NCBI GenBank assembly: GCA_035601235.1
Contig: DATNOR010000186.1
Span: 279 to 64,278, forward strand
Origin: Gemmatimonadales bacterium
GTDB lineage: Bacteria; Gemmatimonadota; Gemmatimonadetes; Gemmatimonadales; GWC2-71-9
DNA: 64,000 nucleotides
Reading direction: 5' to 3'
Below, in pieces: positions 2,739 through 58,771 of the stretch (position 1 is the first letter of the stretch; each line of letters opens with the position of its first letter). The notes below the pieces were generated by a model. It worked only from the letters and a program-made list of their open reading frames with translations. It did no database searches and was not told the DNA's origin. The position numbers and the translations under genes were made by a program.

Positions 2739-2818
2739 CGCAGACGCGAAACCGGCGGCAACTTTCCCGCGAGCATCGCTCGTCACCGTTCCTTCTTGCA
2801 CACGAGGTTCTGCCCCGC

Positions 2819-5092
2819 ATGCACACGATCGCCCGCGCGCTCGTTGCGTCCGCCCTCGGCGCGCTGCTCCTCGCCGCCGCTCCTTCCCCCACCGCCGACC
2901 TGCGCGGCTACTCCACCGACGCGGCGAAGGCCGAGCGGGACTGGGAGGCCAAGCTCCGCGCTGTCCCGTCGCCCGACTCGTTGCGCGAGTACATGCGCCG
3001 CCTCTCGGCGCGGCCGCACCACGTCGGCTCGCCGTACGACAAGGACAACGCCGAGTGGATCCTCGCCAAGTTCAAGGGCTTCGGGTTGGACGCGCGGATC
3101 GAGACGTTCGACGTGCTGTTCCCCACGCCCAAGGAGCGCGTCGTGGAGCTGGTGGCACCCACGAAGTTCGTCGCCAAGCTGCAGGAGCCCCCGGTCGTGG
3201 GCGACCCCACCTCGAGTCAGCAGGCGGAGCAGCTGCCGACCTACAACGCCTACTCGATCGACGGCGACGTCACCGCCCCGCTGGTGTACGTGAATTACGG
3301 CGTGCCGGCGGATTATGAGCAGCTCGAGCGCATGGGCATCTCCGTCAAGGGCGCCATCGTGATCGCGCGCTATTTCGGATCGTGGCGCGGCATCAAGCCC
3401 AAGGTGGCGGCCGAGCACGGGGCCGTGGGCTGCATCATCTACTCCGATCCGCGGGAGGATGGGTACGCCCATGGCGAGGTGTACCCGCAGGGTCCGTGGC
3501 GGCCCAAGGACGGCGTGCAGCGCGGCAGCGTGATGGACATGCCGCTCTATCCCGGCGATCCGCTCACCCCCGGGATCGGGGCGACCAAGGACGCCAAGCG
3601 CCTGGCGGTGAGTGAAGCCCCCACGATCACCAAGATTCCCGTGCTGCCGATTTCCTACGGCGACGCGCAGCCGCTGCTGGCGGCGCTGCGCGGTCGCGTG
3701 GCGCCGGCCGAGTGGCGCGGCGCCCTCGGCATCACCTACCGCCTCGGTCCCGGGCCCGCCCGCGTGCATCTGCGGGTCAAGTCCGACTGGAATCTCAAGC
3801 CCCTGTACGACGTGATCGCGCGCATCCCAGGCGCGGTCGCGCCGGACGAGTGGGTGGTCCGCGGCAATCATCACGACGCCTGGGTGAACGGCGCGGAAGA
3901 TCCGATCTCGGGACTGGTGCCGCTGCTGGAAGAGGCGCGCGCCTACGGGCAGCTCCTCAAGCAGGGCTGGAAGCCGCGCCGCACCATCATCTACGCCGCC
4001 TGGGACGGCGAGGAGCCGGCGTTGCTCGGCTCGACCGAGTGGGTCGAGGCCCATGCCGACGAGCTGGCCGCCAAGGCCGTCGCGTACCTGAACAGCGACA
4101 CCAACAACCGCGGGTACCTGAACATCGGCGGCTCGCACTCGCTCGAGAATTTCATCAACGACGTGGCGCGCGATATCGAAGATCCCGAAACCAAGCTCAC
4201 CGTATGGAAGCGGGCCCAGCTCCGTGCCATTGCCGACGCGACCTCCGCGGACGCCCGCCAGGAAGCGCGCCAGCGTGCCGACCTGCGCATCGACGCCCTC
4301 GGGTCCGGGTCGGATTTCACGCCGTTCCTGCAGCACGTCGGCGTCGCCACGTTGAACCTCGGCTACGGCGGGGAGGGCGGCGGCGGGATCTATCATTCGA
4401 TCTACGATGACTTCAAGTGGTTCACCACCTTCGACGACACGTCGTTCGTGTACGGGCGCGCCCTGGCCCAGACCGTGGGCACCGCGGTGTTGCGCCTGGC
4501 CGACGCCGAAGTCCTGCCCTATCAATTCACCGGGCTGGCCGAGACGGTGGCGAAGTACACCAAAGAGGTGGAGAAGCTCGCGAAGGACAAGCAGGACGAG
4601 ATCCGCGAGCGGACCCGCGAGCTCGACGAGGGCCTGTTCACGGCCACCGCCGATCCGCGCGAGCCCGACGTGCCCCCGGCGCGCGAGGCGCTGCCGCCGT
4701 TTCTCAACTTCGCGCCGCTCGACAACGCGACCGACGCGCTGACACGCGTGGCCGAGCGCTACGAGAAAGCCCTGGGGCGCGCTCAGGCCAACGGCGGCGC
4801 GGCGCTGGCCAAGCCGGACGTGCAGGCCGTGAACGCCACCCTGCTCCGCTCGGAACGGGCGCTGACGACCGCAGCCGGACTGCCGCGCCGGCCGTGGTAT
4901 CGTCACGCGGTCTATGCGCCAGGCTTCTACACGGGCTACGGCGTGAAAACACTTCCAGGCGTGCGCGAGGCGATCGAGCAGAAAAACTGGTCCGAGGGCG
5001 ACGCGCAAATCGAAGCCGCCGGCAAGGCGCTCCAGGCCACCGCTGACGTGATCGGGCGTGCGGCCGAGCAGCTGGAGAAGGCGGCGCCGTGA
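2819..5092 (+). CDS. M28-family peptidase, glutamate carboxypeptidase II / NAALADase-like (PA domain plus TfR-like dimerisation domain)
   Basis: 757-aa ORF with signal peptide MHTIARALVASALGALLLAAA. Stretches typical of the family: GAIVIARYFGSWRGIKP, RGNHHDAWVNGAEDP, AAWDGEEPALLGSTEW, YHSIYDDF. Confidence 0.8.
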   Translation: MHTIARALVASALGALLLAAAPSPTADLRGYSTDAAKAERDWEAKLRAVPSPDSLREYMRRLSARPHHVGSPYDKDNAEWILAKFKGFGLDARIETFDVLFPTPKERVVELVAPTKFVAKLQEPPVVGDPTSSQQAEQLPTYNAYSIDGDVTAPLVYVNYGVPADYEQLERMGISVKGAIVIARYFGSWRGIKPKVAAEHGAVGCIIYSDPREDGYAHGEVYPQGPWRPKDGVQRGSVMDMPLYPGDPLTPGIGATKDAKRLAVSEAPTITKIPVLPISYGDAQPLLAALRGRVAPAEWRGALGITYRLGPGPARVHLRVKSDWNLKPLYDVIARIPGAVAPDEWVVRGNHHDAWVNGAEDPISGLVPLLEEARAYGQLLKQGWKPRRTIIYAAWDGEEPALLGSTEWVEAHADELAAKAVAYLNSDTNNRGYLNIGGSHSLENFINDVARDIEDPETKLTVWKRAQLRAIADATSADARQEARQRADLRIDALGSGSDFTPFLQHVGVATLNLGYGGEGGGGIYHSIYDDFKWFTTFDDTSFVYGRALAQTVGTAVLRLADAEVLPYQFTGLAETVAKYTKEVEKLAKDKQDEIRERTRELDEGLFTATADPREPDVPPAREALPPFLNFAPLDNATDALTRVAERYEKALGRAQANGGAALAKPDVQAVNATLLRSERALTTAAGLPRRPWYRHAVYAPGFYTGYGVKTLPGVREAIEQKNWSEGDAQIEAAGKALQATADVIGRAAEQLEKAAP

Positions 5093-5153
5093 GGGTTGAC
5101 TGACAGTCGTCCCCGTCGCCAGTTTGCTGGGCACGAGGTACGCGGAGGAGCGC

Positions 5154-5516
5154 ATGCAGAGCCGCAGTCGCACCGTGGCGTTCAGCGCCATCCTGTTGTT
5201 GCCCGTCGCCACGTACGCCCCGGTCGATCGACACCCGCAGACGGCCGCGCAACCCGGCGCGTCGTACACCTACCAGGGCACCGTGCGCGCCTTCACGGCG
5301 AAGACGGGATCACTCGAGCTGATAACCGGCGTCGGCATGGCCTTGCGCATCGTACAGATCAGCGTCGCGCCGGCGGCTCACGCCGGCGGCGGAACCGCCG
5401 CCCGCCTCGCGGGCCTCGAGTTCAAGCCCGGAGACGTGGTGCGGGTCGAGGGCCACCGCACCGGCGCGGGACTCGTCGCGGACCGCATCGAGAAGATCGA
5501 GGTGCCGAAGCCGTGA
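5154..5516 (+). CDS. hypothetical small secreted protein
   Basis: ATG 5154 is preceded by GGAGGAG. Hydrophobic N-terminus TVAFSAILLLPVATYA. Its stop overlaps the GTG of the next gene (GTGA at 5513-5516). No family recognised. Confidence 0.45.
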   Translation: MQSRSRTVAFSAILLLPVATYAPVDRHPQTAAQPGASYTYQGTVRAFTAKTGSLELITGVGMALRIVQISVAPAAHAGGGTAARLAGLEFKPGDVVRVEGHRTGAGLVADRIEKIEVPKP

Positions 5517-6655
5517 CCCGGCAGCGGGTCGCGGCTCTCTTCCTGCTCTTGCTCGCTGGCTGCGCCAAGCCGGTGAAGCCGGGCGACCCCGTGCCCGGCC
5601 TCACGCGCGACCAACGCGACCGCTTCGCCCGCGGCAAGGTGGTGTTCGACAGCACGTTCACCCCGGCGACCGGGCTCGGGCCGCTCTTCAACTCGACCGG
5701 GTGCGGCGAGTGCCATGAGGACCCCGCGGCGGGCGGGCGCGGCGACGAAATCGAGGTGCACGCCACCGCGTTCCACGCCCCCGCCTGCGATCCCCTGGTG
5801 CAGGAAGGCGGACCGGTGGTGCAGCAGCACACCACGCCGGCCCTCAAACAGGCGCTCGGGATCGACAGCGAGCCCTTCCCCCCGTCCGCCACGGCCCGTG
5901 CTCACCGCACCTCGCCCGTGGTGTTCGGCCGGGGACTGCTCGATCTCGTCCCGGACTCGGCCATCCTTTCGTACGCCGACCCGGACGACCGGAATCACGA
6001 CGGCATCCGGGGGCGCCCGGGGCGCTCGCTGGACGGGCGGATCGGTCGCTTCGGCCGCAAGGCCTTGGTTCCCACGTTGCGCGAGTTCAACGCCGGCGCG
6101 TTCCCCACCGAGACGGGGGTGACCGACCCCGAGCAGCCTACCGAAGAGAACATCGGCGGCAAGCCCATCCCGCCCGGCGTCGATCCGGTGGCCGAGCCCG
6201 AGATCACACAGGAGGGGCTCGCTCTGGCGGACGATTTCGTGCGTTTCCTGGGCGCCCCCACGCCCGCCAAGCTGGGCAAGGACGGGCGGCGCGGGCGCGA
6301 CCTGTTCTCGCAGATCGGCTGCGCCTCCTGCCACATCCCGACGCTGCGCACGGGGGCGAGCCCCATTGCGGCGCTCGCCTACCGCGAGTTCCCCGCCTAC
6401 ACCGACTTGCTGCTCCACGATATGGGAGCGGAGCTGGCCGACATCTGCCTCGGCAGCGCGACCCCCCGGGATTTCCGCACCGAGCCCCTGCTCGATCTGC
6501 GCGACGCCAAGACCTTCCTGCATGACGGACAGGCCGCCACCCTGGAGCAGGCCGTCGAGCGCCACGGCGGGGAAGCCGCGGGCGTCCGCGACCGCTTCAA
6601 GGCCCTCCCCGTCGCGGACCGGAACGCCATCGTCGCGTTTCTCAAGTCCCTTTAA
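5513..6655 (+). CDS. di-haem cytochrome c oxidoreductase-like lipoprotein (DUF1111-type)
   Basis: In-frame GTG 5513 gives the lipoprotein-like N-terminus VTRQRVAALFLLLLAGCAKP. Two CxxCH haem motifs (CGECH, CASCH). GLGPLFN block typical of DUF1111. Confidence 0.8.
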   Translation: MTRQRVAALFLLLLAGCAKPVKPGDPVPGLTRDQRDRFARGKVVFDSTFTPATGLGPLFNSTGCGECHEDPAAGGRGDEIEVHATAFHAPACDPLVQEGGPVVQQHTTPALKQALGIDSEPFPPSATARAHRTSPVVFGRGLLDLVPDSAILSYADPDDRNHDGIRGRPGRSLDGRIGRFGRKALVPTLREFNAGAFPTETGVTDPEQPTEENIGGKPIPPGVDPVAEPEITQEGLALADDFVRFLGAPTPAKLGKDGRRGRDLFSQIGCASCHIPTLRTGASPIAALAYREFPAYTDLLLHDMGAELADICLGSATPRDFRTEPLLDLRDAKTFLHDGQAATLEQAVERHGGEAAGVRDRFKALPVADRNAIVAFLKSL

Positions 6656-6700
6656 AGAGGAATCCGGGGACTGCCGGGGGACTTGATGAAGGCGGGCCGG

Positions 6701-6716
6701 TGTGATTAGCATCACT
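6701..6716. promoter_or_regulatory. CRP-type palindrome TGTGA-ttagca-TCACt upstream of the ABC transporter operon
   Basis: 9 of 10 match to TGTGA-N6-TCACA, read directly. The centre is 36 nt upstream of ATG 6745. It overlaps a possible TTGATG(6683)-N18-TAGCAT(6707) promoter. Confidence 0.45.
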
Positions 6717-6744
6717 CCGCCCATACACACATTCGCTGGTCGGT

Positions 6745-7707
6745 ATGCCTCTCCTCTCAGTCGAAGGCGTTTCCAAGCGGTTCGACGGCGTGACGGCCGT
6801 CGACCAGGTCTCGTTCGCCGTGGACCGCGGTCAGGTGGTGGGATTCCTTGGCCCGAACGGGGCCGGGAAATCCACGACCATGCGGATGATCACCCAGTAC
6901 TACGAGCCGGACACGGGTGGCATCAAGCTCGACGGCGTACCGCTCGCCGACGTGGGGCGCCAGGCGAAGCGCCGCATCGGCTACCTCGCTGAGAACAATC
7001 CATTGTATGGCGACATGCTGGTGTGCGATTACCTGGGCTTCATCGCCGACCTGCGGGAGCTCGCCGGTGTCGGGCGCCGCCAAGCGCTCGACGAGGCGGT
7101 CACCGGCACGGGCATCGAGACGGTGTACTACCGGCCCATCGGCGAGTTGTCGAAGGGGTACCGCCAGCGGGTGGGCCTCGCGCAAGCGATCCTGCACCGC
7201 CCCGATCTGCTGGTCCTGGACGAGCCCACCGAAGGGCTCGACCCCAACCAGCGCCTGGAGATCCGCAGGCTGATCGGCGCGCTCGGCAAGGACCGCACCG
7301 TGATCCTGTCGACGCACGTGCTCCCGGAGGTGCAGCACACCTGCTCGCGCCTGCTCATCATCAGCCGCGGTAAGATCGTGGCCGACGGACCCGTGGAGCG
7401 GCTCATCCAGCAGGCGGAAGGGGCGGTCGAGATCGCCGTCGAGGCCGCCGGCACGGGCGTCGCGGAAGCGCTGGGCCAGCTCCCCGGGGTGCGCCGGGTG
7501 AGTCCGGCAGGCCCGGCCACGAATGGCCGAGTGGCGGTGACGCTCACCGCCGATCGCTCCACCGACCTGCGGCCCGAGATCTTCGGACTCGCCAAGGCCC
7601 GCGGCTGGACGCTGTACGAGCTGCATCAGGCGGCCGGCCGCCTCGAGGACCTGTTCCACCAGCTCACGAGTCAGCCACCTGACGAGTCAGGCGGAGCGGT
7701 GACGTGA
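6745..7707 (+). CDS. ABC transporter ATP-binding protein (GldA-like, ABC-2 type)
   Basis: Walker A GPNGAGKST, signature LSKGYRQR, Walker B LLVLDEPTEGLD. Confidence 0.9.
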   Translation: MPLLSVEGVSKRFDGVTAVDQVSFAVDRGQVVGFLGPNGAGKSTTMRMITQYYEPDTGGIKLDGVPLADVGRQAKRRIGYLAENNPLYGDMLVCDYLGFIADLRELAGVGRRQALDEAVTGTGIETVYYRPIGELSKGYRQRVGLAQAILHRPDLLVLDEPTEGLDPNQRLEIRRLIGALGKDRTVILSTHVLPEVQHTCSRLLIISRGKIVADGPVERLIQQAEGAVEIAVEAAGTGVAEALGQLPGVRRVSPAGPATNGRVAVTLTADRSTDLRPEIFGLAKARGWTLYELHQAAGRLEDLFHQLTSQPPDESGGAVT

Positions 7708-29772: not shown

Positions 29773-30819
29773 GTGCTGATCGTGATGCGACACGGCGCGA
29801 CCGAGGAAGAAGTTCGGCGCGTGATCGCGGTGATCGAAGAGATGGGCTACAAGGCGCGGCCCATGCCGGGCGCGCAGCGCACCGCCGTGGGCCTGGTCGG
29901 CAACGACGGGCGGGTGGACGCGTCGCGCCTGGAAGGCCTCCCCGGTGTGCAGGACGTGATCCACGTCTCCAAGCCCTACAAGCAGGTGAGCCGCGAGTGG
30001 AAGAGCGAGAACACGGTGGTCCGGCTCGGGGGGGGCGGGGGGGTGACCGTGGGCGGGACCGAAGTCGTGACGATCGCGGGGCCGTGCTCGGTCGAGAGCG
30101 AGCGACAGATCATCGAAGCGGCCCGGCTCGTGAAGGACGCGGGCGCCGTGATTCTCCGGGGCGGCGCCTGGAAGCCGCGCACCTCGCCGTACGCGTTCCA
30201 GGGCCTGGGCCGACCCGGGCTCAAGCTCCTGGCCAAGGCGCGCGAGGAAACCGGTCTGCTGATCTGCACCGAGGCGATGGATCCCGACGGGATCGGCTAC
30301 GTCGCCGAAGTGGCCGACCTGATCCAGATCGGCGCCCGCAACATGCAGAATTTCTCGCTGCTCAAGATCGCGGGACGGGCCAAGAAGCCGGTGCTCTTGA
30401 AGCGCGGCATGTCCGCGACGATCGAGGAGCTGCTGTTGTCGGCCGAGTACCTGCTCGCCGAGGGGAATCACGACGTGATCCTGTGCGAGCGCGGCATCCG
30501 CGGGTTCGACACGGCCACCCGGAACGTGTTCGACCTCACCGCCATCCCCGTGGTGCACAAGCTGTCGCACCTGCCCATCATCGCCGATCCCTCGCACGGC
30601 ACGGGGCTGCGGGACAAGGTGATCCCCATGGCCCGCGCCGCGGTGGCCGCGGGAGCCGACGGGATCATGGTCGAGGTGCATCCCAATCCCGAGCAAGCTC
30701 TCTCGGACGGCGCGCAGACGCTCTATCCCGACCAGTTCGCCCAGCTGATGCGGGAAATCCGGGTGATCGCGGACGTGATCGGGAGGCGGGTGGCGGAGCC
30801 GGCGGGGGTGGGGGCGTGA
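29773..30819 (+). CDS. aroF: 3-deoxy-7-phosphoheptulonate (DAHP) synthase, type I-beta with an N-terminal regulatory domain
   Basis: [46 protein letters not shown]. Confidence 0.88.
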
Positions 30820-30821
30820 GC

Positions 30822-30941
30822 AACGCGGAACGCGGAACGCGGAACGCGGAGCAGAGGCGCAGGCATCCGGGGGAGAAGCCGAATCTGGCGCGCAGAATGG
30901 CGTACGTCTGTTCCGCGTTCCGCCTTCCGCGTTCCGCGTTC
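30822..30941. repeat. heptamer-armed palindromic element, copy A (~120 bp)
   Basis: Left arm (AACGCGG)x4 at 30822-30850, ~60-nt core, right arm TTCCGCG TTCCGCC TTCCGCG TTCCGCG at 30911-30938. The arms are complementary with 1 mismatch. Homologous to 45635..45753 in the opposite orientation. Confidence 0.8.
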
Positions 30942-35010: not shown

Positions 35011-35924
35011 GCGCCCTCCTCGAGGATGGCCAGCACGTACCGCGCCCGGCCGAACAAGTCGTCGTGCACGTTCACCCGCGACCACGCCAGCTCGCGCGCG
35101 AGCCACGCGACACGCTCGGCGCGCCGCTCGTCCACCTCCAGCGCGAGCAGCCCGCCCGGCTCGAGCAGGCCGCGGGCGCCCGCGAGCAGGGCCCGCGTCG
35201 CGGCGAGCCCGTCCGGACCGCTCACCAACGCGTCGCGCGGCTCGAACAGCCGCACGGCCGGGTCGAGGCCCAGGTACTCGGCCTCGGTCAGGTACGGCGG
35301 GTTGGAGACGATGGCACGACACCGCTCGCCCGCGAGCGGGGTGAGCAGGTCGCCCTCGCGCACGTCGACCGGTACCGGCGGTCGCACCAGCGCGACGTTC
35401 TCGCGCGCCAACGCCGCGGCCTCCGCAGAGCGCTCGACCGCGATGACGCCCTCGAAGATGCCTTCGACGGCGAGCGATAACGCGATGCAGCCGCATCCGG
35501 TCCCGATGTCCGCCCCCACGCCACGTTTCCCGTTTCCCGTTTCCCCTTTCCCGACTTCCCGAAGTACCAGCTCGACCAGTCCCTCGGTCTCGGGTCGCGG
35601 AATCAGGGCGCGCGCGTCGAGCGTCAGATCGAGTGTGCGGAAGCCCACCCGGCCGACAGCGTACGCGAAGGGGACGCCGCTCGCACGCCGCTCTACGGCC
35701 CGATAGAACCGCTCTACCAGCGCCGCCGCGGCCTCCTGGTCGCGTTGCAACCACACGTCACCCGGTTTGGTCCCCGCACCGCGCACGGCTGCCCAGAGCA
35801 TCGTCGCTTCGCGCCGCGAGCGAGGCAGGCCGGCCGCTGCCAGGCGCTCGGCGGCGTCGTTCAGGGCAGCGCCGATCGAGCTCGGGTGCGCGGCAGGCTC
35901 AGGCACTGAGTCGCTCGTTCTCAC
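35007..35924 (-). CDS. prmC: release-factor glutamine N5-methyltransferase
   Basis: IVSNPPYL and DIGTGCGCIALSLA motifs. Directly downstream of prfA. Contains the heptamer array 35525..35560. Confidence 0.9.
   Translation of the reverse strand: MRTSDSVPEPAAHPSSIGAALNDAAERLAAAGLPRSRREATMLWAAVRGAGTKPGDVWLQRDQEAAAALVERFYRAVERRASGVPFAYAVGRVGFRTLDLTLDARALIPRPETEGLVELVLREVGKGETGNGKRGVGADIGTGCGCIALSLAVEGIFEGVIAVERSAEAAALARENVALVRPPVPVDVREGDLLTPLAGERCRAIVSNPPYLTEAEYLGLDPAVRLFEPRDALVSGPDGLAATRALLAGARGLLEPGGLLALEVDERRAERVAWLARELAWSRVNVHDDLFGRARYVLAILEEGA
35525..35560. repeat. tandem heptamer array (GTTTCCC)x3 plus two degenerate units, inside prmC
   Basis: Read directly. The coding strand is (GGGAAAC)n and encodes GKGETGNGKRG just before the SAM-binding GTG motif. 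Confidence 0.8.
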
Positions 35925-42037: not shown

Positions 42038-43587
42038 CGCTCGCCTCCTGGTTCAGGTTGTCCCCATCCGCCCCCGCCCGGTGTCTCGATGCGGACCACG
42101 TCGCCGGCCGCGAGTCGTGTGCTCACCTTGGACGGGAGCGGGGCCCCGTTCACGAGCGTACGCCCGGGAGCGCCCGCGCCGCCGCCACCGACTCCGCACG
42201 GGGCGTGGCGCCGCCGCTCCGCGAGAACGCTCGCGTCCATCGGGGCGAGCGCTTCGAATTCCCGAATCACGCCGTCCCCGCCCGACCACCGCCCAACCCC
42301 GCCGCTGCCCCGTCGTAAGCCGTACGCCTTGAGCCGCAAGGGATACTCCATCTCGAGCACCTCGACCGGCGTGTTCCGCGTGTTCGACATCCCCACGTGC
42401 ACGCCCGACGGTCCGTGAGCGCCGGAGCTCGCCCCCTGGCCACCCCCGATCGTCTCATAGTAGGTCCAGCCGGTTTCGAGCCCCGAGTCCCGAACCCCGA
42501 GTCCCCCGAACGTCACGTTGTTCATTGTGCCCTGCCCCTGCGCCGGGACCGGGAGACTGCCGGTCGCGAGCGCCCGGAACACCGTGTCCGCGATGCGCTG
42601 CGACGTCTCGACGTTCCCCGCCGCCACGGCACTGGGGAAGCGGGCATGCACGAGGCAGCCCTCGGGCGCCGTGACCCGCACGACCCGGGTCACGCCGCCG
42701 TTCGTCGGCACGTCCTCAGGCAACAGCGTGCGCACCACGAACAGCACCGCCGAGCGCGCCACGGCGAGCGGGCAGTTGACGTTGCCGTGCGCGGCAGGGG
42801 CGGTGCCGGTGAAATCCGCGTGGAACATGCCGTCCCGGATGTCCACGCGGACGCGAATCGCCAGGTCTCGGTCGTCGACGCCGTCGCCTTCCAGCCAGTC
42901 GGTCGCGGTGAGCCCGGTCGCCTCGAAGCGTGCCAGGGCCTCGCGGGCGCGCCGCTCGGCGTACGCCTGGAGGTCGCGGGCGGCGTCGCACAGCGCGGCC
43001 CAGCCGTGGCGCGCCGCGAGCGCCCGTAGCCCGTCGGCGCCGCGCTCCACGGCGGCGCGCTGGGCCGCGAGATCGGCGCGGCGCGCCTCGGGGGTGCGGA
43101 CGTTCGCGAGCAGGAAGCGCTCGACCTCCGGCGTGAGCCGCAGCGGCGGCACCACCACCCCCTCCGCAAAGATCTCGCGCGCGCCCGCGGGCATGCTCCC
43201 CGCCTGCATCCCGCCCACGTCGGAATGGTGCGCGCGCACCACGCCATAGCCGCCCACCGCGCCCTCCACCTCCACGGCACCGACGAGCGTGATGTCCGGG
43301 AGGTGCGACCCGCCGGCGTAGGGATCGTTCAAGATGAAGACGTCGCCTGGCGCGGGGGCCAGGGCCCGCACGGCCGCGACGGACTCATGCAGCGCGCCCA
43401 GATGTACGGGAATGTGGGCCGCCTGAGCGATCATCTCGCCGGCGGCGTCGAACAGCGCCGCGGAGCAGTCACGTCGCTCCCGGATGTTGGGGGAGACGGC
43501 CGAGTGAATCAGCACGAGCCCCATCTCCTCCGCGATGGAGGCGAAGGCATGCCCCATCACCTCGAGGCCCACCGCGTCGAGGCTCAT
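42034..43587 (-). CDS. hyuB: hydantoinase B / oxoprolinase family protein
   Basis: ATG 43587 overlaps the hyuA stop (ATGA). SPNIRERRDCSAALFD, ILNDPYAGGSHLPD, YYETIGGGQGA. Confidence 0.9.
   Translation of the reverse strand: MSLDAVGLEVMGHAFASIAEEMGLVLIHSAVSPNIRERRDCSAALFDAAGEMIAQAAHIPVHLGALHESVAAVRALAPAPGDVFILNDPYAGGSHLPDITLVGAVEVEGAVGGYGVVRAHHSDVGGMQAGSMPAGAREIFAEGVVVPPLRLTPEVERFLLANVRTPEARRADLAAQRAAVERGADGLRALAARHGWAALCDAARDLQAYAERRAREALARFEATGLTATDWLEGDGVDDRDLAIRVRVDIRDGMFHADFTGTAPAAHGNVNCPLAVARSAVLFVVRTLLPEDVPTNGGVTRVVRVTAPEGCLVHARFPSAVAAGNVETSQRIADTVFRALATGSLPVPAQGQGTMNNVTFGGLGVRDSGLETGWTYYETIGGGQGASSGAHGPSGVHVGMSNTRNTPVEVLEMEYPLRLKAYGLRRGSGGVGRWSGGDGVIREFEALAPMDASVLAERRRHAPCGVGGGGAGAPGRTLVNGAPLPSKVSTRLAAGDVVRIETPGGGGWGQPEPGGER
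42477..42510. repeat. heptamer array CGAGCCC CGAGTCC CGAACCC CGAGTCC, inside hyuB
   Basis: Read directly. The coding strand is G-rich (GGACTCG/GGGTTCG units) and encodes GGLGVRDSGLETG between the conserved FGG and YYET blocks. Confidence 0.7.
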
Positions 43588-45608
43588 GTGCGCGCCAGCA
43601 GCACCGCGCCCGAGGGGTGCACGGTGCCACACCAGCCGGGCTCCACGAGGGCGGTCGCGTCGCCGCCGGCCAGGATCGCCGGACCCTGCAGCGTCACTCC
43701 CGTGGCGAGCTGGTCGAGCGCCCACACCGAGCCGGTGATCCGCTCCCCACGCACGACGAAAGGACGCCGTCCCAGCGGGCGTCGCCCACTGCGGTGTTCG
43801 CCCGCGAAGCGCGGCAGCGGTCCCTCGCGCAGCACCACGACGCGCAGGTTCACAATCTCGACCGCCAGGCCGCCCCCGTGTCCGTAGCGCGCGCGGTGTG
43901 CCGCCACGAAGGCGGCACGAATCCGCTCGGGCTCGTCTCCTTCGACCGGGACCGTCACCTCGTAGCCCTGTCCCGCGAAGCGACAGTCAGCATAACGGAG
44001 CAGCGCCGCGCCGGGGATCTGGCGAGCACCCTCCGCGACGATCGGTGCGAAGGCTTGGGCCAGCGCCCGCGGCTCGAGGCCGTCCACGGGACGGTGAAAC
44101 GATGCGAGCAGATCGGCCCGCTCGGGCGCCGACGCGAGCCCCAGCGCGGACAGCGCTCCGGGATGCGGCGGGATGACGATCGTGCCCATCCCCAGCGCTT
44201 CGGCCAGCTGGCAGCCGAACAGCGCCCCCGCGCCCCCGAACGGCAACAGCGTCATGCGGCGCGGGTCGAGGCCACGCGCGACGCTCACCCGCTTCAGGGC
44301 GCGCGCCATCACGGCACCGGCGACCGCGACGACTCCAGCGGCGACCCGTGCGGCGTCGCTCCCGACCGTGGGGCCGAGCCGGCGCAGGGCCCGCTCGGCG
44401 GCGCGAGGGTCGAGCCGCACGCCGTCGGCGAGCGGGCTGTCCGCGTCGAGCCATCCCAGCGCGACACAGGCATCGGTCACGGTGGGTCGCTCGCCGCCGC
44501 GCCCGTAGCACGCCGGCCCCGGCACCGCTCCGGCGCTCTCCGGCCCGACGCGCAGGGCGCCACCCTCGTCCAGGCGCGCGATGCTGCCGCCGCCCGCGCT
44601 CACGGTCTCGATCAGCACCGCCGGCAAGGCGAGCGGGACGCCGCCGACGCTGCCCGCACCGTTGGCGAGCGGAGCACCCCCGACCACGAGGCTCGCGTCG
44701 GCGCTCGTGCCGCCCATGTCCAGGGTGAGCAGATCCGAGAGGCCCACGGCGGCGCCGATCAGACGGGCCCCGACCACACCACCCGCGGGGCCCGAGAGCG
44801 CGAGCGATGCCGCGTGCGCGGCGGCGGCGGCGGGCGTGCGCGTGCCCCCGCTCGACGTCATCACCCGCAGCGCGCCGATCGCGCGCTCGCGCAGGCCGCC
44901 GTCCAGCCGCTCGATGTAGGTCGAGACCCTGGGACGGAGGTATGCTTCGACGGTGGTCGTGCTGGTGCGCTCGAACTCACGAAACGCGGGGAGCACCTCG
45001 TGGCTCGCCGCGACCGCCACGCGCGGCAGCGCGTCGCGCAGGGCGGCGGCGAGCCGCCGCTCGTGCGTCGGGTCGCGAAACGCGAACAGCAGCGCGATGG
45101 CGACGGCTTCCGGGGCGAGCCCCCGCACAGCGGCGACCACGCGCGCGACCTCCCCCTCCGTGAGCGGCTCGAGCACCCCGGCTGGGCCGATGCGCTCCGC
45201 GACCCCCACCACGTCTCCCCGGGCGACGAGCGGTGGCGGGTGGTCGCGCGCCAGGTCGTAGAGCGCGGCGCGGTCCTGCCGGCGCAGCCACAGCAAGTCC
45301 TCGAATCCCCGGGTGGTGACGAGCACCACGCGGGCGCCGCGCCGCTCGAGCAGCACGTTGGTCGCGATGGTTGTACCGTGGATCAGCATGTCTATGGGGA
45401 CGGGGGACGAGGGAAGAGGGACGGGTGGGGATGTCGCCGCACTCGTCCCCCGTCCCTCGTCCCTCGTCTCCAGCGTATCTAGCGCCCGAAACATCCCGAC
45501 CGCCGGGTCCTCCGGCGTAGTGGCGACCTTACGGACCTCGATCGCGCCGTCGGGCGTGAGCGCGACCAGGTCGGTGAACGTTCCCCCCACATCCACCCCG
45601 ACCCTCAC
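43584..45608 (-). CDS. hyuA: hydantoinase A / oxoprolinase family protein
   Basis: GTG 45608 gives VRVGVDVGGTFTDLV. HGTTIATNVLLERRG. Contains the hairpin insertion 45396..45471. Confidence 0.9.
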   Translation of the reverse strand: MRVGVDVGGTFTDLVALTPDGAIEVRKVATTPEDPAVGMFRALDTLETRDEGRGTSAATSPPVPLPSSPVPIDMLIHGTTIATNVLLERRGARVVLVTTRGFEDLLWLRRQDRAALYDLARDHPPPLVARGDVVGVAERIGPAGVLEPLTEGEVARVVAAVRGLAPEAVAIALLFAFRDPTHERRLAAALRDALPRVAVAASHEVLPAFREFERTSTTTVEAYLRPRVSTYIERLDGGLRERAIGALRVMTSSGGTRTPAAAAAHAASLALSGPAGGVVGARLIGAAVGLSDLLTLDMGGTSADASLVVGGAPLANGAGSVGGVPLALPAVLIETVSAGGGSIARLDEGGALRVGPESAGAVPGPACYGRGGERPTVTDACVALGWLDADSPLADGVRLDPRAAERALRRLGPTVGSDAARVAAGVVAVAGAVMARALKRVSVARGLDPRRMTLLPFGGAGALFGCQLAEALGMGTIVIPPHPGALSALGLASAPERADLLASFHRPVDGLEPRALAQAFAPIVAEGARQIPGAALLRYADCRFAGQGYEVTVPVEGDEPERIRAAFVAAHRARYGHGGGLAVEIVNLRVVVLREGPLPRFAGEHRSGRRPLGRRPFVVRGERITGSVWALDQLATGVTLQGPAILAGGDATALVEPGWCGTVHPSGAVLLART
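45396..45471. repeat. heptamer hairpin (GGGGACG-type arms) inserted in frame in hyuA
   Basis: Left arm GGGGACG GGGGACG AGGGAAG AGGGACG, ~15-nt loop, right arm CTCGTCC CCCGTCC CTCGTCC CTCGTCT. Encodes roughly ETRDEGRGTSAATSPPVPLPSSPVP. Confidence 0.8.
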
Positions 45609-45634
45609 CGCTCCACCACCCCCCTCCCCGCTCC

Positions 45635-45753
45635 AACGCCGAACGCGGAAGGCGGAACGCGGAACAGAGCGTACCCAGTTCGTTCGCCCAACCTCGTGTC
45701 CGGGATCGAACTCCGCGCGATCTGTTCCGCATTCCGCGTTCCGCGTTCCGCGT
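45635..45753. repeat. heptamer-armed palindromic element, copy B (~120 bp)
   Basis: AACGCCG AACGCGG AAGGCGG AACGCGG ... TTCCGCA TTCCGCG TTCCGCG TTCCGCG. Its reverse complement aligns with copy A over both arms and the arm-proximal core. Lies between the lnt stop (45757) and the hyuA start (45608). Confidence 0.8.
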
Positions 45754-45756
45754 TTC

Positions 45757-47292
45757 TCACGCGCTCCGTCTCCAGTGCAGCACCGCCAGCGCCCCGGCGA
45801 ACCCCAAGGTCGCGAGCACACAGAGCGTTCCCACCCAATCTCCCAGCCGCACGTACGGCGGGATCACGTCGCTCGAGCGCAGCCGGCCGGAGACCGCCGC
45901 TTCGACCTCGAGACCGGTGGCCGCGTAGGTCTGGCCCAGCGGATCAACGAACTCGGAGATGCCGTCGTTCGCGGCGCGGGCGATCCCCGTCCGCGTCTCG
46001 ATCGCCCGCATCACGAGGTGCGTGGCGTGTTGATAGGGACCGGCGGTGCGGCCGTACCAGGCGTCGTTAGTGATGTTCACGAGAAAGTCGGCGCCCGCCG
46101 CGCGATAGCGGCGCGCCAGATCTTCGAACGCCGACTCGTAGCAGATGACCACCCCGAAGCGTCCCAAGGGACTGGGGTAGAGCGGCAAGGTGGACCCCGG
46201 CGAGAACCCGCCGGACCAGTTTCCCAGACCGGGGACGCTGCGAAACAGGCGCACCGGGACGAATGGGACCCGCTCGACCACGGGCACGAGATAGTGCTTG
46301 CCGTACACGGGATACGCCCGCCACTGGCCGGTCGAATCGTAGAAAAAGGCGGCGTTGTAGTAGGCGTCCCGCGTCACCGCATGCAGACCTCCCGTGAGGA
46401 TCGGCGTGTGCCGCTCGCGCGCCAGTGCGGCGATCTGTGCGTCCCACGTCGGCGTCTCCGCCAGCCAGCCGGGCACGGCGGCCTCGGGCCACACGAGGAG
46501 GTCGAGCCGGCCGCCGGACTCGAGCTGGCGCGACAGGCTGAGCAGCTTCGCCACGACGCTGTCGGCGTGCGCAGGATCCCATTTTTCGTGGAAGCCCTCG
46601 TTCGGCTGCACCAGGCCGACCGTGCCCAGCTCGCGCAGCGGCAGTGTGCGCGTGCGCCAGGCACCGTAGGCCCAGGCCGCGACGACCGTCGCGAGCACGG
46701 CAATCACCGGTCGCCACCGAATCGAGCCTCTTCCCACCGCGTCCACGATCATCACGTTGCACCAGGCGAGCCACAACGTCACTCCACGCGCGCCGGCGAG
46801 GTCGGCCCATTGCACGAGCACGGGCGCGTCGCCGAGCGACGTGCCCAGCCCGAGCCAGGGAAACCGGATATCTCCCTGATGTCCCACCGCCCATTCGACG
46901 GCGGTCCAGGCGAGCGGAAACACGAGGGCGAGCGGCACCGCCGGGAGGCGGCGGCGCACGCGCAGCACGAACCAGAAGAGCAGGCCGTGCCACAGTCCGA
47001 AGATGGCGATCGTGGCGAGGTAGCCGAGGGCCGACAACGGCGTAAAATGCCACAGCGCGACGACCAGCCAATACAGGACGGCTCCCTGCGTCACGAAGCC
47101 GTACGCGAATCCCCAGCGCAACGCGTCGCGCGGGTGGCACTCCTGCTCCAGCCGGCGCAGCAGCACGACCGCCGGGGCGACCGCGACGAAGCTCAGCAGG
47201 GGAAGGCGAAAGGGAGGGTAGCTGGCGACGAGGAGGGCGGCGCCGATCGCGATCAGCGCCGCGGACCGCCGGCTCGCCGGGGGGAGGGTCAC
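45757..47292 (-). CDS. lnt: apolipoprotein N-acyltransferase
   Basis: Multi-TM N-terminus plus a CN-hydrolase domain (LVWPE, ICYESAF, NDAWYG). Confidence 0.9.
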   Translation of the reverse strand: MTLPPASRRSAALIAIGAALLVASYPPFRLPLLSFVAVAPAVVLLRRLEQECHPRDALRWGFAYGFVTQGAVLYWLVVALWHFTPLSALGYLATIAIFGLWHGLLFWFVLRVRRRLPAVPLALVFPLAWTAVEWAVGHQGDIRFPWLGLGTSLGDAPVLVQWADLAGARGVTLWLAWCNVMIVDAVGRGSIRWRPVIAVLATVVAAWAYGAWRTRTLPLRELGTVGLVQPNEGFHEKWDPAHADSVVAKLLSLSRQLESGGRLDLLVWPEAAVPGWLAETPTWDAQIAALARERHTPILTGGLHAVTRDAYYNAAFFYDSTGQWRAYPVYGKHYLVPVVERVPFVPVRLFRSVPGLGNWSGGFSPGSTLPLYPSPLGRFGVVICYESAFEDLARRYRAAGADFLVNITNDAWYGRTAGPYQHATHLVMRAIETRTGIARAANDGISEFVDPLGQTYAATGLEVEAAVSGRLRSSDVIPPYVRLGDWVGTLCVLATLGFAGALAVLHWRRSA

Positions 47293-48296: not shown

Positions 48297-48970
48297 TTCC
48301 CGGCCCAGCGATACATGACGCCCGAGCGGAGCGACGCGGTCGAGAGCCCGCTCGAGAGCACGCCGCGCGCCTCGAGCGTGAAGCGCCAGCGTTTGGCGCC
48401 GAATTCAGCGCCGACCGTGCCGTTCAACCCGGCCGTGATCTCGTTCAGGGCGTCCTGCACGAAGGTGCCGTTGATGGCAGCGCCGCTGCCGTGACGGAAG
48501 TGGGCGCCGAGCCCGATCCCCATGTAGGCCGTGACCGCGTGCCCCTGCGGGAGCACGTACTGCAAGTCCACATCGCCGGTCACGTCGCTCCAGGTAATGC
48601 CGCCCAGCTTGATGGTATCGTCGCCCGAGGGATCGACCACGACGCTCTTGAGGCGCTGCTCGAAGCGCGCGCGGGCGGCCGACCCGAAGTCGGCCTTGAA
48701 GTAGGACACGCCGAGCAGCACGCGCACGTGCGGCGCGATGAACCCGTAGTCGAGCCGCACGCCGCCGGTGAACGCACCCCGGATGTTGTTGCCGCCGAGC
48801 GGCCCGACGTCGAGCTGGAGCGCACTGGGCTTCAGGTTGTCGTAGGAGAACTGGGAGAGCAGACCTTGGGCGGACAGGCGGACAGGCGGACTGACGGACA
48901 GCAGCAGCGCGAGCAGACCGACCGCCCGTCCGCCCCTCCGCGCGACCGCCTTAATAGAGGCGCTCGACAT
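48293..48970 (-). CDS. putative outer-membrane beta-barrel protein
   Basis: ATG 48970 gives the signal peptide ...GLLALLLSVSPPVRLSAQ. Alternating beta-strand pattern. Aromatic-rich C-terminal stretch ...GVMYRWAGK. Confidence 0.5.
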   Translation of the reverse strand: MSSASIKAVARRGGRAVGLLALLLSVSPPVRLSAQGLLSQFSYDNLKPSALQLDVGPLGGNNIRGAFTGGVRLDYGFIAPHVRVLLGVSYFKADFGSAARARFEQRLKSVVVDPSGDDTIKLGGITWSDVTGDVDLQYVLPQGHAVTAYMGIGLGAHFRHGSGAAINGTFVQDALNEITAGLNGTVGAEFGAKRWRFTLEARGVLSSGLSTASLRSGVMYRWAGK

Positions 48971-56833: not shown

Positions 56834-56868
56834 AGGGATCAGGGGTCAGGGGTCGGGTGCCAGGGTGT
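56834..56868. repeat. heptamer array AGGGATC AGGGGTC AGGGGTC GGGTGCC AGGGTGT filling an intergenic spacer
   Basis: Read directly. It occupies essentially all of the 37 nt between the stop at 56868-70 and the aldh ATG at 56830. Confidence 0.75.
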
Positions 56869-57377
56869 CAGCGCTTCGGCGCCAACGTAGGCGGTGACAC
56901 GTCGGGGCAGAGCCAGAGCGCGGCCGCGTGGCTGCCGACGCGCGGCAGGACTTCCCGTGTCATCAGGAGGATGCCCCAGACGATGAGGCCCTGCGCGATC
57001 ACATGGGCGAAGCCGAGGCGTCGTTTCCAGGACGAGAGGCTGGCCCACACGCCCGCGGCCACCACGGTGGTCACGCCCAGGAGATAGAAGATCAGCCGCA
57101 ACCCGCAGCCGTGCGAATACGGCCAGACGCCGGGGGCGACCCCGATGCCGACGAGCACGCCGAGCGCCACCTTGGCCCACGTGCCGAGTCGCCCGGAGCC
57201 GCTCGGGGGTGCGACGCCGCCGCGCGGCGTCACCGTGGAGAGCGACGGCTTTTTGGCGGTCGGCTCGTAGCCAGCCCGGCGGCCCAGCGTCGGGTCCGCG
57301 TCGGGGAGCTTCTTGAGCAGCCGGTCGACCTCGGCCATCTCTTTGTCCCAGTCCCGCTCTTTATCGCTTCCCGCCAC
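56868..57377 (-). CDS. hypothetical membrane protein (charged N-terminus plus 3-4 TM segments)
   Basis: The GTG start overlaps the activator stop by 1 nt. Hydrophobic spans VALGVLVGIGVA, LIFYLLGVTTVVAAGVWA, GLIVWGILLM. Confidence 0.5.
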   Translation of the reverse strand: MAGSDKERDWDKEMAEVDRLLKKLPDADPTLGRRAGYEPTAKKPSLSTVTPRGGVAPPSGSGRLGTWAKVALGVLVGIGVAPGVWPYSHGCGLRLIFYLLGVTTVVAAGVWASLSSWKRRLGFAHVIAQGLIVWGILLMTREVLPRVGSHAAALWLCPDVSPPTLAPKR

Positions 57378-58771
57378 TACGCCCCCCCGTCCCGCGCCAG
57401 CCGGTAGCGCTCGATCTTCTTGTAGAGATTACTGCGCGGCATATCCAATGTGCGCGCCGTCTCCGACACATTCCAGTCGTTTTCCTGCAGCTTGGCGAGG
57501 ATGTAGGTCCGCTCCGCCACCTGCTTGAACTCCTCGAACGTCGCCGCCCGCATCCACGGCGCCGCGGACACGTCGACGGGCCCCGTCCCCCGTCCCCCGT
57601 CCCCCGTCCCGACGCCCGCGATCCGCTCCACATCCGATACGGTGACCGTCGGACCGGGGGCGAGAATGAGGAGGCGCTCGACGGCATTGCGCAGCTCGCG
57701 GATGTTGCCGGGCCAGTCGTACGCGGCGAGCCGTTTCAGGGCGTCGGGGTCGACGCCCTTGGCCTGGAGCCCGCCGCGCTCGGTCAAGCGAGCGGTGAAG
57801 TGCTCGACCAGCTGCGGCACGTCGGCCCGGCGGGCGCGCAGCGGCGGCACCTCGATCGGCACGACGTTGAGCCGGTAGAGCAGATCCTCCCGGAACCGAC
57901 CCGCGGCGATTTCGGCGCGCAGATCCTTGTTGGTGGCAGCGACGACCCGCACGTCCACCGCCAGCGTCTTGCCCGACCCCACGCGGGAGATGACGGCCTC
58001 CTCCAGCGCGCGCAGCACCTTGGCCTGGGCCGAGAGGCTCATGTCGCCGACCTCGTCGAGGAACAGCGTTCCTCCATCGGCCAGCTCGAACTTGCCGGCG
58101 CGGTCGGCGAATGCGCCGGTGAAGCTGCCCTTCATGTGCCCGAACAGCTCGCTCTCGATCAGCTCCGTCGGGATCGCCGCGCAGTTCACCTCCACGAACG
58201 GCTGGTCGGCGCGGGGGGAGAGCGTATGGATGGCGCGGGCGACGAGCTCCTTGCCGGTGCCGTTTTCGCCGGTGATGAGGACGCGCGCCGCGGTCGGCGC
58301 CACCTTCTCGATGCGCTCGATCACACCCTTCACGGCCCGGCTCGAGCCCACGATCTCGTACTGGGCGTGCACCTCGGCTTTGAGCCGCACGTTCTCGCTG
58401 GCGAGGTCCACGTGCTCGAGGGCGTTGCGCAGCGTGAGGAGGATGCGGTCCGTGTCGAGCGGCTTCTCGAGGAAGTCGTAGGCGCCGAGCTGGGTCGCTT
58501 CGACGGCGGTCTGGATGGTGCCGTGGCCCGAAATCATCACGACCTGCGCGCGCGAGTCGAGCTCGCGCAGCTTGCGCAGCGTCTCGAGGCCGTCCATGCC
58601 CTGCATCTTCACGTCGAGCAACACGAGGTGGGGCCGGAACTCGGGGTAGAGGCTCAGCGCCTCGGCGCCGGAGACGCACGCCCGCACGTCGATGTCCTCG
58701 TACTCGAGCAGCTGGGTCAGGGCTTCACGGATGCCCTTCTCGTCGTCCACGACCAGGACCCGCCGGCTCAC
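57377..58771 (-). CDS. sigma-54-dependent response regulator (REC - AAA+ - Fis-type HTH)
   Basis: VLVVDDE...LLDVKM receiver. GENGTGKE Walker A. GAFTGA-like GSFTGA. ESELFGH. C-terminal ARTLDMPRSNLYKKI HTH. Confidence 0.92.
   Translation of the reverse strand: MSRRVLVVDDEKGIREALTQLLEYEDIDVRACVSGAEALSLYPEFRPHLVLLDVKMQGMDGLETLRKLRELDSRAQVVMISGHGTIQTAVEATQLGAYDFLEKPLDTDRILLTLRNALEHVDLASENVRLKAEVHAQYEIVGSSRAVKGVIERIEKVAPTAARVLITGENGTGKELVARAIHTLSPRADQPFVEVNCAAIPTELIESELFGHMKGSFTGAFADRAGKFELADGGTLFLDEVGDMSLSAQAKVLRALEEAVISRVGSGKTLAVDVRVVAATNKDLRAEIAAGRFREDLLYRLNVVPIEVPPLRARRADVPQLVEHFTARLTERGGLQAKGVDPDALKRLAAYDWPGNIRELRNAVERLLILAPGPTVTVSDVERIAGVGTGDGGRGTGPVDVSAAPWMRAATFEEFKQVAERTYILAKLQENDWNVSETARTLDMPRSNLYKKIERYRLARDGGA
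57581..57608. repeat. four perfect CCCCGTC heptamers inside the activator gene
   Basis: Read directly. The coding strand is (GACGGGG)4, encoding GVGTGDGGRGTGPV in the linker between the AAA+ and HTH domains. Same unit as the hyuA hairpin arms. Confidence 0.85.

Follow-up and report, generated by a model that had tools for sequence, protein, structure and literature searches.

A translated heptamer-repeat hairpin in a hyuA-like gene of Gemmatimonadales, apparently lost, shortened or exchanged among close relatives

How does a long palindromic repeat come to lie, in frame, inside the coding sequence of an enzyme, and what becomes of it there? The question is raised by a 76-nt heptamer-repeat hairpin at 45396-45471 of a 64,000-nt stretch of DNA from a Gemmatimonadales soil bacterium (contig DATNOR010000186.1 of assembly GCA_035601235.1, positions 279 to 64,278; hereafter the window), where it is translated as part of a minus-strand gene for a hyuA-like hydantoinase/oxoprolinase A subunit. 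The original prediction, made from the sequence alone, took the hairpin for a palindromic repeat that had landed in the gene in the style of Rickettsia palindromic elements (RPEs) and had been retained in frame. Comparison with orthologues and with other heptamer repeats leads us to a different history, in which the hairpin is probably a neutral, translated passenger in a permissive loop of the protein, turned over by deletion and recombination that the hairpin itself would provoke. What we observed is the insertion, its disordered location, its repeated loss, truncation and replacement, and differences between strains that are localised to hairpins.

On the plus strand the block reads GGGGACG GGGGACG AGGGAAG AGGGACG GGT, a 14-nt loop, and then ACTCGTC CCCCGTC CCTCGTC CCTCGTC, so that an imperfect hairpin is formed by two 31-nt arms with about four GGGGACG-type heptamers each. 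The predicted location was borne out by repeat detection, arm pairing and RNA folding. Tandem Repeats Finder reported period-7 arrays at 45396-45425 (unit GGGGACG, 4.3 copies, 82% matches) and at 45442-45468 (unit CTCGTCC, 3.9 copies, 90% matches), and an inverted-repeat search paired 45395-45430 with 45437-45472 (36 nt, 83% complementary). Slipped registers of the stem paired better than the 36-nt register (15 nt at 100%, 23 nt at 91%), as expected because the arms consist of repeats. The sense-strand RNA from 45482 to 45385 folded at −57.4 kcal/mol compared with −35.0 ± 3.4 kcal/mol for shuffled sequences (z = −6.56; none of 200 shuffles was as stable). The heptamer pattern, when up to two mismatches were allowed, occurred 20 times in the window against 11.9 expected, which is no strong over-representation; the evidence against chance is the local clustering and the fold z-score rather than the word count. 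Because the G tracts of the window's copy are only GGG, GGG and GGGGG, its G-rich arm is degenerate as a G-quadruplex motif; four perfect GGGG tracts are present in a relative (L087) and in a second array of the window at 57577-57610. Terminator-like sites, promoter-like sites and a terminator tail were looked for at the hairpin and none was found, and Rfam gave no family for it, only sub-threshold matches to generic microRNA precursors of the kind typical of any long hairpin.

The identity of the host gene is well supported. Its product carries Hydant_A_N (1e-41), Hydantoinase_A (2e-79) and Hydant_A_C domains, all far above the Pfam cut-offs, and the best Foldseek matches of its AlphaFold model were N-methylhydantoinase (9h03_A), caprolactamase (6yra_A) and acetone carboxylase (5svc_B), with query-normalised TM-scores of 0.8. 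It thus has the Pfam domains, the ASKHA fold (acetate and sugar kinases/Hsc70/actin) and the adjacent B subunit of a hydantoinase/oxoprolinase A subunit. The gene order lnt-hyuA-hyuB-TauE is found in relatives, and the closest genome loci are those of Gemmatimonadales metagenome-assembled genomes from soil, at 60-73% identity.

Within this gene the hairpin reads ...ALDTL-ETRDEGRGTSAATSPPVPLPSSPVP-IDMLIHGTT on the minus strand, exactly as the original prediction had it, and lies between the DVGGTFTD motif and the HGTT block. The spacing from GGTFTD to HGTT is 69 residues here versus 45-49 in most of 120 close homologues at 73-99% identity and in most Gemmatimonadales genome loci. An insertion at this point had been anticipated at about 25 residues; the insertion is there, and its net size relative to most orthologues is 21 residues, corresponding to a 63-nt gap in the DNA alignment of the empty-site orthologues. 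In the AlphaFold model (mean predicted local distance difference test score, pLDDT, 89.2, from a 34-sequence alignment) residues 50-67 are the sole segment below 50, within a coil (residues 48-73) between helix 35-47 and strand 74-78. The insertion is thereby predicted to occupy a disordered connector from helix α1 to the next strand of the N-terminal ASKHA subdomain, in agreement with the loop placement that had been proposed for it. This connector is generally indel-prone, as unrelated short duplications occur there in other orthologues, for example P0064 and P0110. Three GGGGACG units translate as GDGGRGT and their complement as RPPSPVP in every frame, with no stops in six frames, so that a G-rich arm yields a Gly/Asp/Arg/Thr stretch and a C-rich arm a Pro/Val/Ser stretch. 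The hairpin would be tolerated because the connector is disordered, the arrays are stop-free in all six frames and the net 63 nt are a multiple of three. The inserted peptide most likely does nothing for the enzyme.

Relatives show a series of states at the same codon position. Hairpins of the GGGGACG kind (type A) are present as a near-perfect copy in L087, where the site segment folds at −95 kcal/mol, and as decayed copies with identical boundaries in the window, L083, L090, L091, L088, L089 and L004. Half-elements are found in L085, which has the C-rich arm alone, and in L086, which has about two G-rich units alone. The site is empty in L002 and also in L082, which retains GGCCG-cac-CGGCC. 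This mini-palindrome is the outermost stem of a second hairpin (type B), a 63-nt GC-rich palindrome without heptamer periodicity that occupies the site in L081 and, 24 nt shorter, in L084. A further hairpin, of GGGGCCT/GGGGTCT units, is found in L030. Orthologues that lack the repeat and yet carry a homologous peptide of the same length would have made the repeat's appearance coincidental; this was not observed. Type B orthologues do have a segment of 21 residues, but its peptide is unrelated and comes from a different hairpin. Every copy keeps the reading frame, and length variants among 139 orthologues always differ by a multiple of three nucleotides; measured against the window's copy, the differences are +15, +3, −6, −24, −30, −60 and −63 nt, and none is ±7 or ±14 nt.

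To place these states in a phylogeny, we used a tree of the 139 sequences from which the insert columns had been removed. The reconstructed root state was empty, and at least eight changes were needed for type A and at least five for type B (20 changes in all). Three states were intermixed within one well-supported clade of 31 close relatives. The boundaries of type A copies were identical across lineages down to 68% identity, and these copies folded at −57 to −95 kcal/mol. These data indicate that close relatives have lost the hairpin, shortened it or exchanged it for another hairpin at the same site. Stems measured about 30 bp in eight type A lineages, seven of which have a 14-nt loop. Arms and loops diverged differently: in type A pairs from distant lineages whose genes average 73% identity, the arms were 83-87% identical and the loops 25%. 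The stem of the window's copy contains five one-sided mismatches, and a two-sided change was seen at one position in about 31 pairs over the eight lineages; such covariation is too slight to argue for or against selection on structure. As a separate matter, we considered whether the type B arm belongs to a dispersed repeat family and rejected this, since it matched the window at chance level (20 matches versus 21 expected).

The contig L081 shows how localised the difference between contigs can be. It aligns with the window over 3.7 kb at about 99% identity, with scattered single-nucleotide polymorphisms, one 9-nt indel and two divergent blocks, both of which are hairpin elements. In the first block (45353-45480) type A is replaced by type B at equal length, 63 of 128 positions being different. 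In the second (45610-45769) the AACGCGG-armed hairpin of the lnt-hyuA spacer is replaced by an AATGCGG/AGTGCGG-armed hairpin, with the same two unit variants in both arms and an unrelated loop. The 129 nt that separate the two blocks are identical to the window. The 9-nt indel, in frame at 43878, is a tandem duplication of GGGGGCGGG in L081 and the only length difference outside the hairpin patches between the two hyuA sequences. Because both blocks reach some tens of bases into unique flanks, and the type B flanks match those of other type B and empty lineages, import by homologous recombination is the simplest reading of the patches. Contigs from eight soil runs were also compared with the window, and window-identical Logan contigs in other soil runs end at 45363 and begin at 45481. 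Such breaks are expected for a population polymorphism with those edges; they are suggestive rather than decisive, as the Logan contigs are fragmentary and only some of them break at the patch edges.

The hyuA hairpin is one copy of a class of convergent heptamer-repeat pairs, to which it is assigned by architecture. We surveyed the window, 110 fetched loci and metagenome runs for this class. Eight period-7 arrays were found in the 64-kb window, including two further inverted pairs. Inspection by eye of the open reading frames in the window's intergenic gaps gave no hint of small four-helix-bundle (S23p-like) proteins. Arrays of period 7 with at least 3.5 copies numbered 42 in 349 kb of Gemmatimonadales loci versus 3 in 396 kb from other phyla (about 14-fold), and period-8 arrays 14 versus 0. 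The G/purine-rich arm was 5′ in 33 of 33 inverted pairs from the window and the loci, drawn from about seven independent sites with at least 14 combinations of unit and site. Heptamer hairpins appear to be abundant in this Gemmatimonadales lineage, usually just after stop codons or between cistrons. The lnt-hyuA spacer carries a heptamer array or hairpin in most Gemmatimonadales loci examined, with units that differ among orthologues and include GATTGCG, AATGCGG, GTCGTGC and GGGAGCG.

Further GGGGACG repeats were found both in the window and in soil metagenomes. The window's perfect array (Table 1) lies within an NtrC-type sigma-54 activator (57377-58771, minus strand), in the linker that joins its AAA+ lid to its HTH_8 domain, and has no inverted partner. 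A metagenome scan detected 20 GGGGACG hairpins on 19 contigs, two of which were hyuA orthologues. Others lie in frame within a KGD-like protein, between 2-oxoacid_dh and E1_dh, and within LigD, between its ligase and Prim-Pol domains. In an MMPL-like protein one supplies both the C-terminal tail and the stop codon, and several are directly 3′ of stop codons. Their loops show no relationship to one another and vary in length between 12 and 34 nt, and no GGGGACG hairpin was detected in viral contigs. In four soil metagenomes the word depth was 12-30 for the hyuA baseline, 360-1000 for the GGGGACG arm (30-50×) and 2500-7600 for AACGCGG arms, and identical AACGCGG arms enclosed many different loop sequences. 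The repeated entity is the arms, not whole elements.

Table 1. Positions of the hyuA gene, its hairpin and other repeat features in the window. Boundaries of arms and loop were set by anchoring on the conserved inner stem.
Feature	Coordinates	Strand	Remarks
hyuA-like hydantoinase/oxoprolinase A subunit	43584-45608	-	674 aa, GTG start; lnt upstream, hyuB downstream
5′ arm (mRNA sense)	45441-45471	-	G-rich, ~4 (G/A)GGGACG units; from Tandem Repeats Finder (3.9 copies), inverted-repeat arms and pairing table; encodes roughly E47-S56 (ETRDEGRGTS)
Loop, 14 nt	45427-45440	-	sense strand GCGGCGACATCCCC; encodes roughly A57-S60
3′ arm (mRNA sense)	45396-45426	-	C-rich, ~4 CGTCCC(C/T) units; from Tandem Repeats Finder (4.3 copies), arm pairing and fold; encodes roughly P61-P71 (PPVPLPSSPVP)
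Allelic patch, 128 nt	45353-45480	-	hairpin with sense-strand flanks of ~10 nt (5′) and ~45 nt (3′)
AACGCGG-armed inverted pair	45633-45754		fills lnt-hyuA spacer; loop ~59 nt
AACGCGG-armed inverted pair	30818-30941		directly after stop codon at 30819
Perfect (CCCCGTC)x4 array	57577-57610		GGGGACG on sense strand; canonical four-tract G-quadruplex motif; encodes GTGDGGRGTG
CGAGCCC heptamer array	42477-42505		in frame within hyuB
CGTTTCC array	35522-35552	-	within minus-strand open reading frame
AGGGGTC array	56834-56871		fills short intergenic spacer
Inverted pair of 8-nt-unit arrays	48869-48950		units GGCGGACA / CCGACCGC

Other sites of variable units accompany these repeats. At the hyuB position orthologous to the CGAGCCC array (about 7040-7130 in loci L001-L030), many Gemmatimonadales genomes carry arrays of GGGGCTC, GGAGTCG, GCAGGGA, GGGAAGG, GGGGGAC and other units, and a similar variable heptamer array lies inside lnt. 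At the site orthologous to the 8-nt-unit pair (about 580-840 in loci L004, L007, L010, L011, L023 and L034), relatives have 8-mer hairpins with the units GGACGGGC, GGACGGCC, GGTTAGGC and GGGCGGAT. In the KGD/SucA-like fusion (contigs L096, L104 and L105), GGGGACG hairpins or related Gly/Pro-rich segments occupy two inter-domain linkers, and the same linker reads differently contig by contig. Linkers in fused multi-domain proteins may therefore often accommodate GGGGACG-type repeats.

How might a neutral hairpin be turned over in this way? The hairpin, or a cruciform or G-quadruplex formed by it, would stall replication or be cleaved or broken. Repair could then delete the hairpin interior, leaving half-elements or a mini-palindrome, or could alternatively copy the homologous allele from a related strain, to give a short conversion tract with the hairpin at its centre. 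Slippage together with arm-to-arm correction would hold the arms near the unit consensus, and the loop would drift freely. Several points weigh against this account. Three different hairpins at one codon position, and arms better conserved than the average of the gene, would be just as compatible with selection for a stem-loop. The relatives are all metagenome contigs, and the mosaic structure of L081 could in part be a strain-chimeric assembly at repeat-rich spots. The break-and-repair steps are inferred rather than observed. In addition, because the stem has a single compensatory position and five one-sided mismatches in the window's copy, arm-to-arm correction is not demonstrated in that copy.

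The alternative that survives best is that the hairpin is a selected cis-acting structure, either a stem-loop in the hyuAB mRNA, with a role in the pacing of translation or in protection or processing of the message, or a protein-bound DNA element, with the peptide as a by-product. We regard it as a possible though rather unlikely explanation. The very stable fold of all type A copies is what it would predict, as are the three unrelated hairpin sequences at the same codon position, the mini-palindrome retained in the otherwise empty L082, the conserved arms with scrambled loops, and the recurrence of a heptamer hairpin with differing units in the lnt-hyuA spacer. However, a hairpin is missing from this position in about 100 of the 139 orthologues, among them close relatives (84-91% identity), and half-elements that are unable to fold persist in L085 and L086. 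The almost exclusively one-sided mismatches, with one compensatory position, and the failure to find a terminator tail, a promoter or an Rfam family at the hairpin also argue against such a function.

It is less probable still, in our estimation, that a dedicated DNA-level process, not passive slippage, installs, homogenises and replaces heptamer hairpins at fixed addresses, including in-gene loops. Such a process might add G-rich heptamers to both 3′ ends of a break and then join the ends, or a G-rich single strand might snap back and be copied; the uniform 5′ position of the G-rich arm in all 33 inverted pairs would be expected under either scheme. The two hairpins that diverge in L081 would then be products of rewriting or targeted conversion and not of ordinary recombination.

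We consider it distinctly unlikely that the hairpin is a mobile miniature element of the RPE, MITE (miniature inverted-repeat transposable element) or REPIN (repetitive extragenic palindromic doublet forming a hairpin) kind, inserted by a transposase, with the other hairpins as independent insertions at a hot spot. In soil metagenomes the same arms do appear beside many different flanking sequences, the hairpins are scattered across the phylogeny, and type A loops are unrelated between distant lineages, as independent insertions would give; the in-frame occurrence in unrelated genes also resembles RPEs (PMC10969869). However, when filled and empty sites were compared, the junctions showed neither a target-site duplication nor a direct repeat, and there were no terminal inverted repeats other than the arrays themselves. 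The copies have no common internal sequence beyond their arms, the unit sequence varies between sites and genomes in a manner unlike a copy-and-paste element, lineages as distant as 68% identity have the same boundaries, and the viral contigs yielded no copies. The idea of an element that landed in hyuA therefore did not hold up, and it is further weakened by the presence of three hairpin types and half-elements at the same codon position in relatives. The analogy with RPEs is fair as regards the result, in which a permissive loop comes to contain a translated palindrome, and fails for family membership and mechanism.

A contingency locus, in which the gain or loss of single 7-nt units switches the hyuA frame by phase variation, is very improbable. 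The unit length is not a multiple of three, tandem arrays are prone to slippage and slipped stem registers exist. However, no in-frame length variant among the orthologues corresponds to one or two units, the present arrays, with about four units and 82-90% matches, are both short and degenerate, and no hairpin indel was present in contigs from the eight soil runs, although contigs drop rare variants. Finally, mere coincidence, a Gly/Pro-rich linker selected at the protein level without any DNA-level repeat biology, is the least credible explanation, for although high-GC genomes often encode Gly/Pro/Arg-rich low-complexity linkers and the peptide is disordered in the AlphaFold model, the fold z-score (−6.6), the period-7 identity that runs through synonymous positions, the same units and architecture in intergenic DNA, the strict arm polarity and the phylum-specific enrichment all speak against it.

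Returning to the hairpin as a neutral passenger under turnover, the hyuA site offers a compact natural series of empty, perfect, decayed and half-element states together with hairpins of other sequence. Because this series lies at one site and two near-identical contigs differ essentially at two hairpins, the turnover mechanism is directly testable, and the same series permits effects of RNA structure to be separated from those of the peptide. Heptamer-repeat hairpins are abundant in several bacterial phyla, and the locus illustrates a route by which such repeats supply enzymes with disordered Gly/Pro-rich linkers. An active process behind the strict arm polarity, if there is one, would represent a new kind of genome-shaping activity. 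The repeat class itself, already known from Xanthomonas and Nostoc, is little studied and poorly understood; what is new in detail is that different hairpins alternate at one codon position and that differences between near-identical contigs are confined to hairpins.

Three known systems bear comparison. In Xanthomonas, GGGAATC repeats form convergent pairs, 70-75 per genome, with a preference for four units (Rehm et al. 2015, PMC4692102). The Nostoc heptamers are simple sequence repeats with the unit GGGGA(C/T)T, the short tandemly repeated repetitive (STRR) sequences of cyanobacteria (PMC4692102). Copies of such repeats are dispersed. Most occupy the space between co-directional genes, no more than 50 bp from a stop codon, 7-11% are intragenic, and convergent arrays that are close together can form a stem-loop or cruciform (PMC4692102). 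The hyuA hairpin resembles these pairs in its 7-nt G-tract units, in having about four units per array and in its convergent arms with a 14-nt loop. Unlike them, it belongs to a different phylum, its GGGGACG unit is one among many in the same genomes, and it is translated in full, both arms and loop; neither the alternation of different hairpins at one codon position nor patch-wise allelic exchange is described in PMC4692102.

RPEs are about 150 bp long and fall into ten sequence families, each with a conserved encoded peptide (Ogata et al., summarised in PMC10969869). The hyuA-type hairpins are like RPEs in being palindromic repeats in frame in unrelated genes (hyuA, KGD-like, LigD and MMPL-like) at fold-compatible sites, but they have only short-unit arms in common, their loops are unrelated, their units vary by site and they bear no sign of transposition. 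Neither the GGGGACG nor the AACGCGG hairpins have the approximately 100-150 bp of conserved sequence and the conserved peptide by which an RPE is recognised. Repetitive extragenic palindromic (REP) sequences, with the bacterial interspersed mosaic elements (BIMEs) and REPINs, are short, GC-rich extragenic palindromes that are abundant, often lie at the 3′ ends of cistrons and spread in dependence on RAYT, the REP-associated tyrosine transposase (PMC3116915). Heptamer hairpins share with them the short GC-rich palindromic form, the apparent abundance and the frequent position at cistron 3′ ends; in contrast, tandem heptamers are not the building blocks of REPs, which normally go untranslated.

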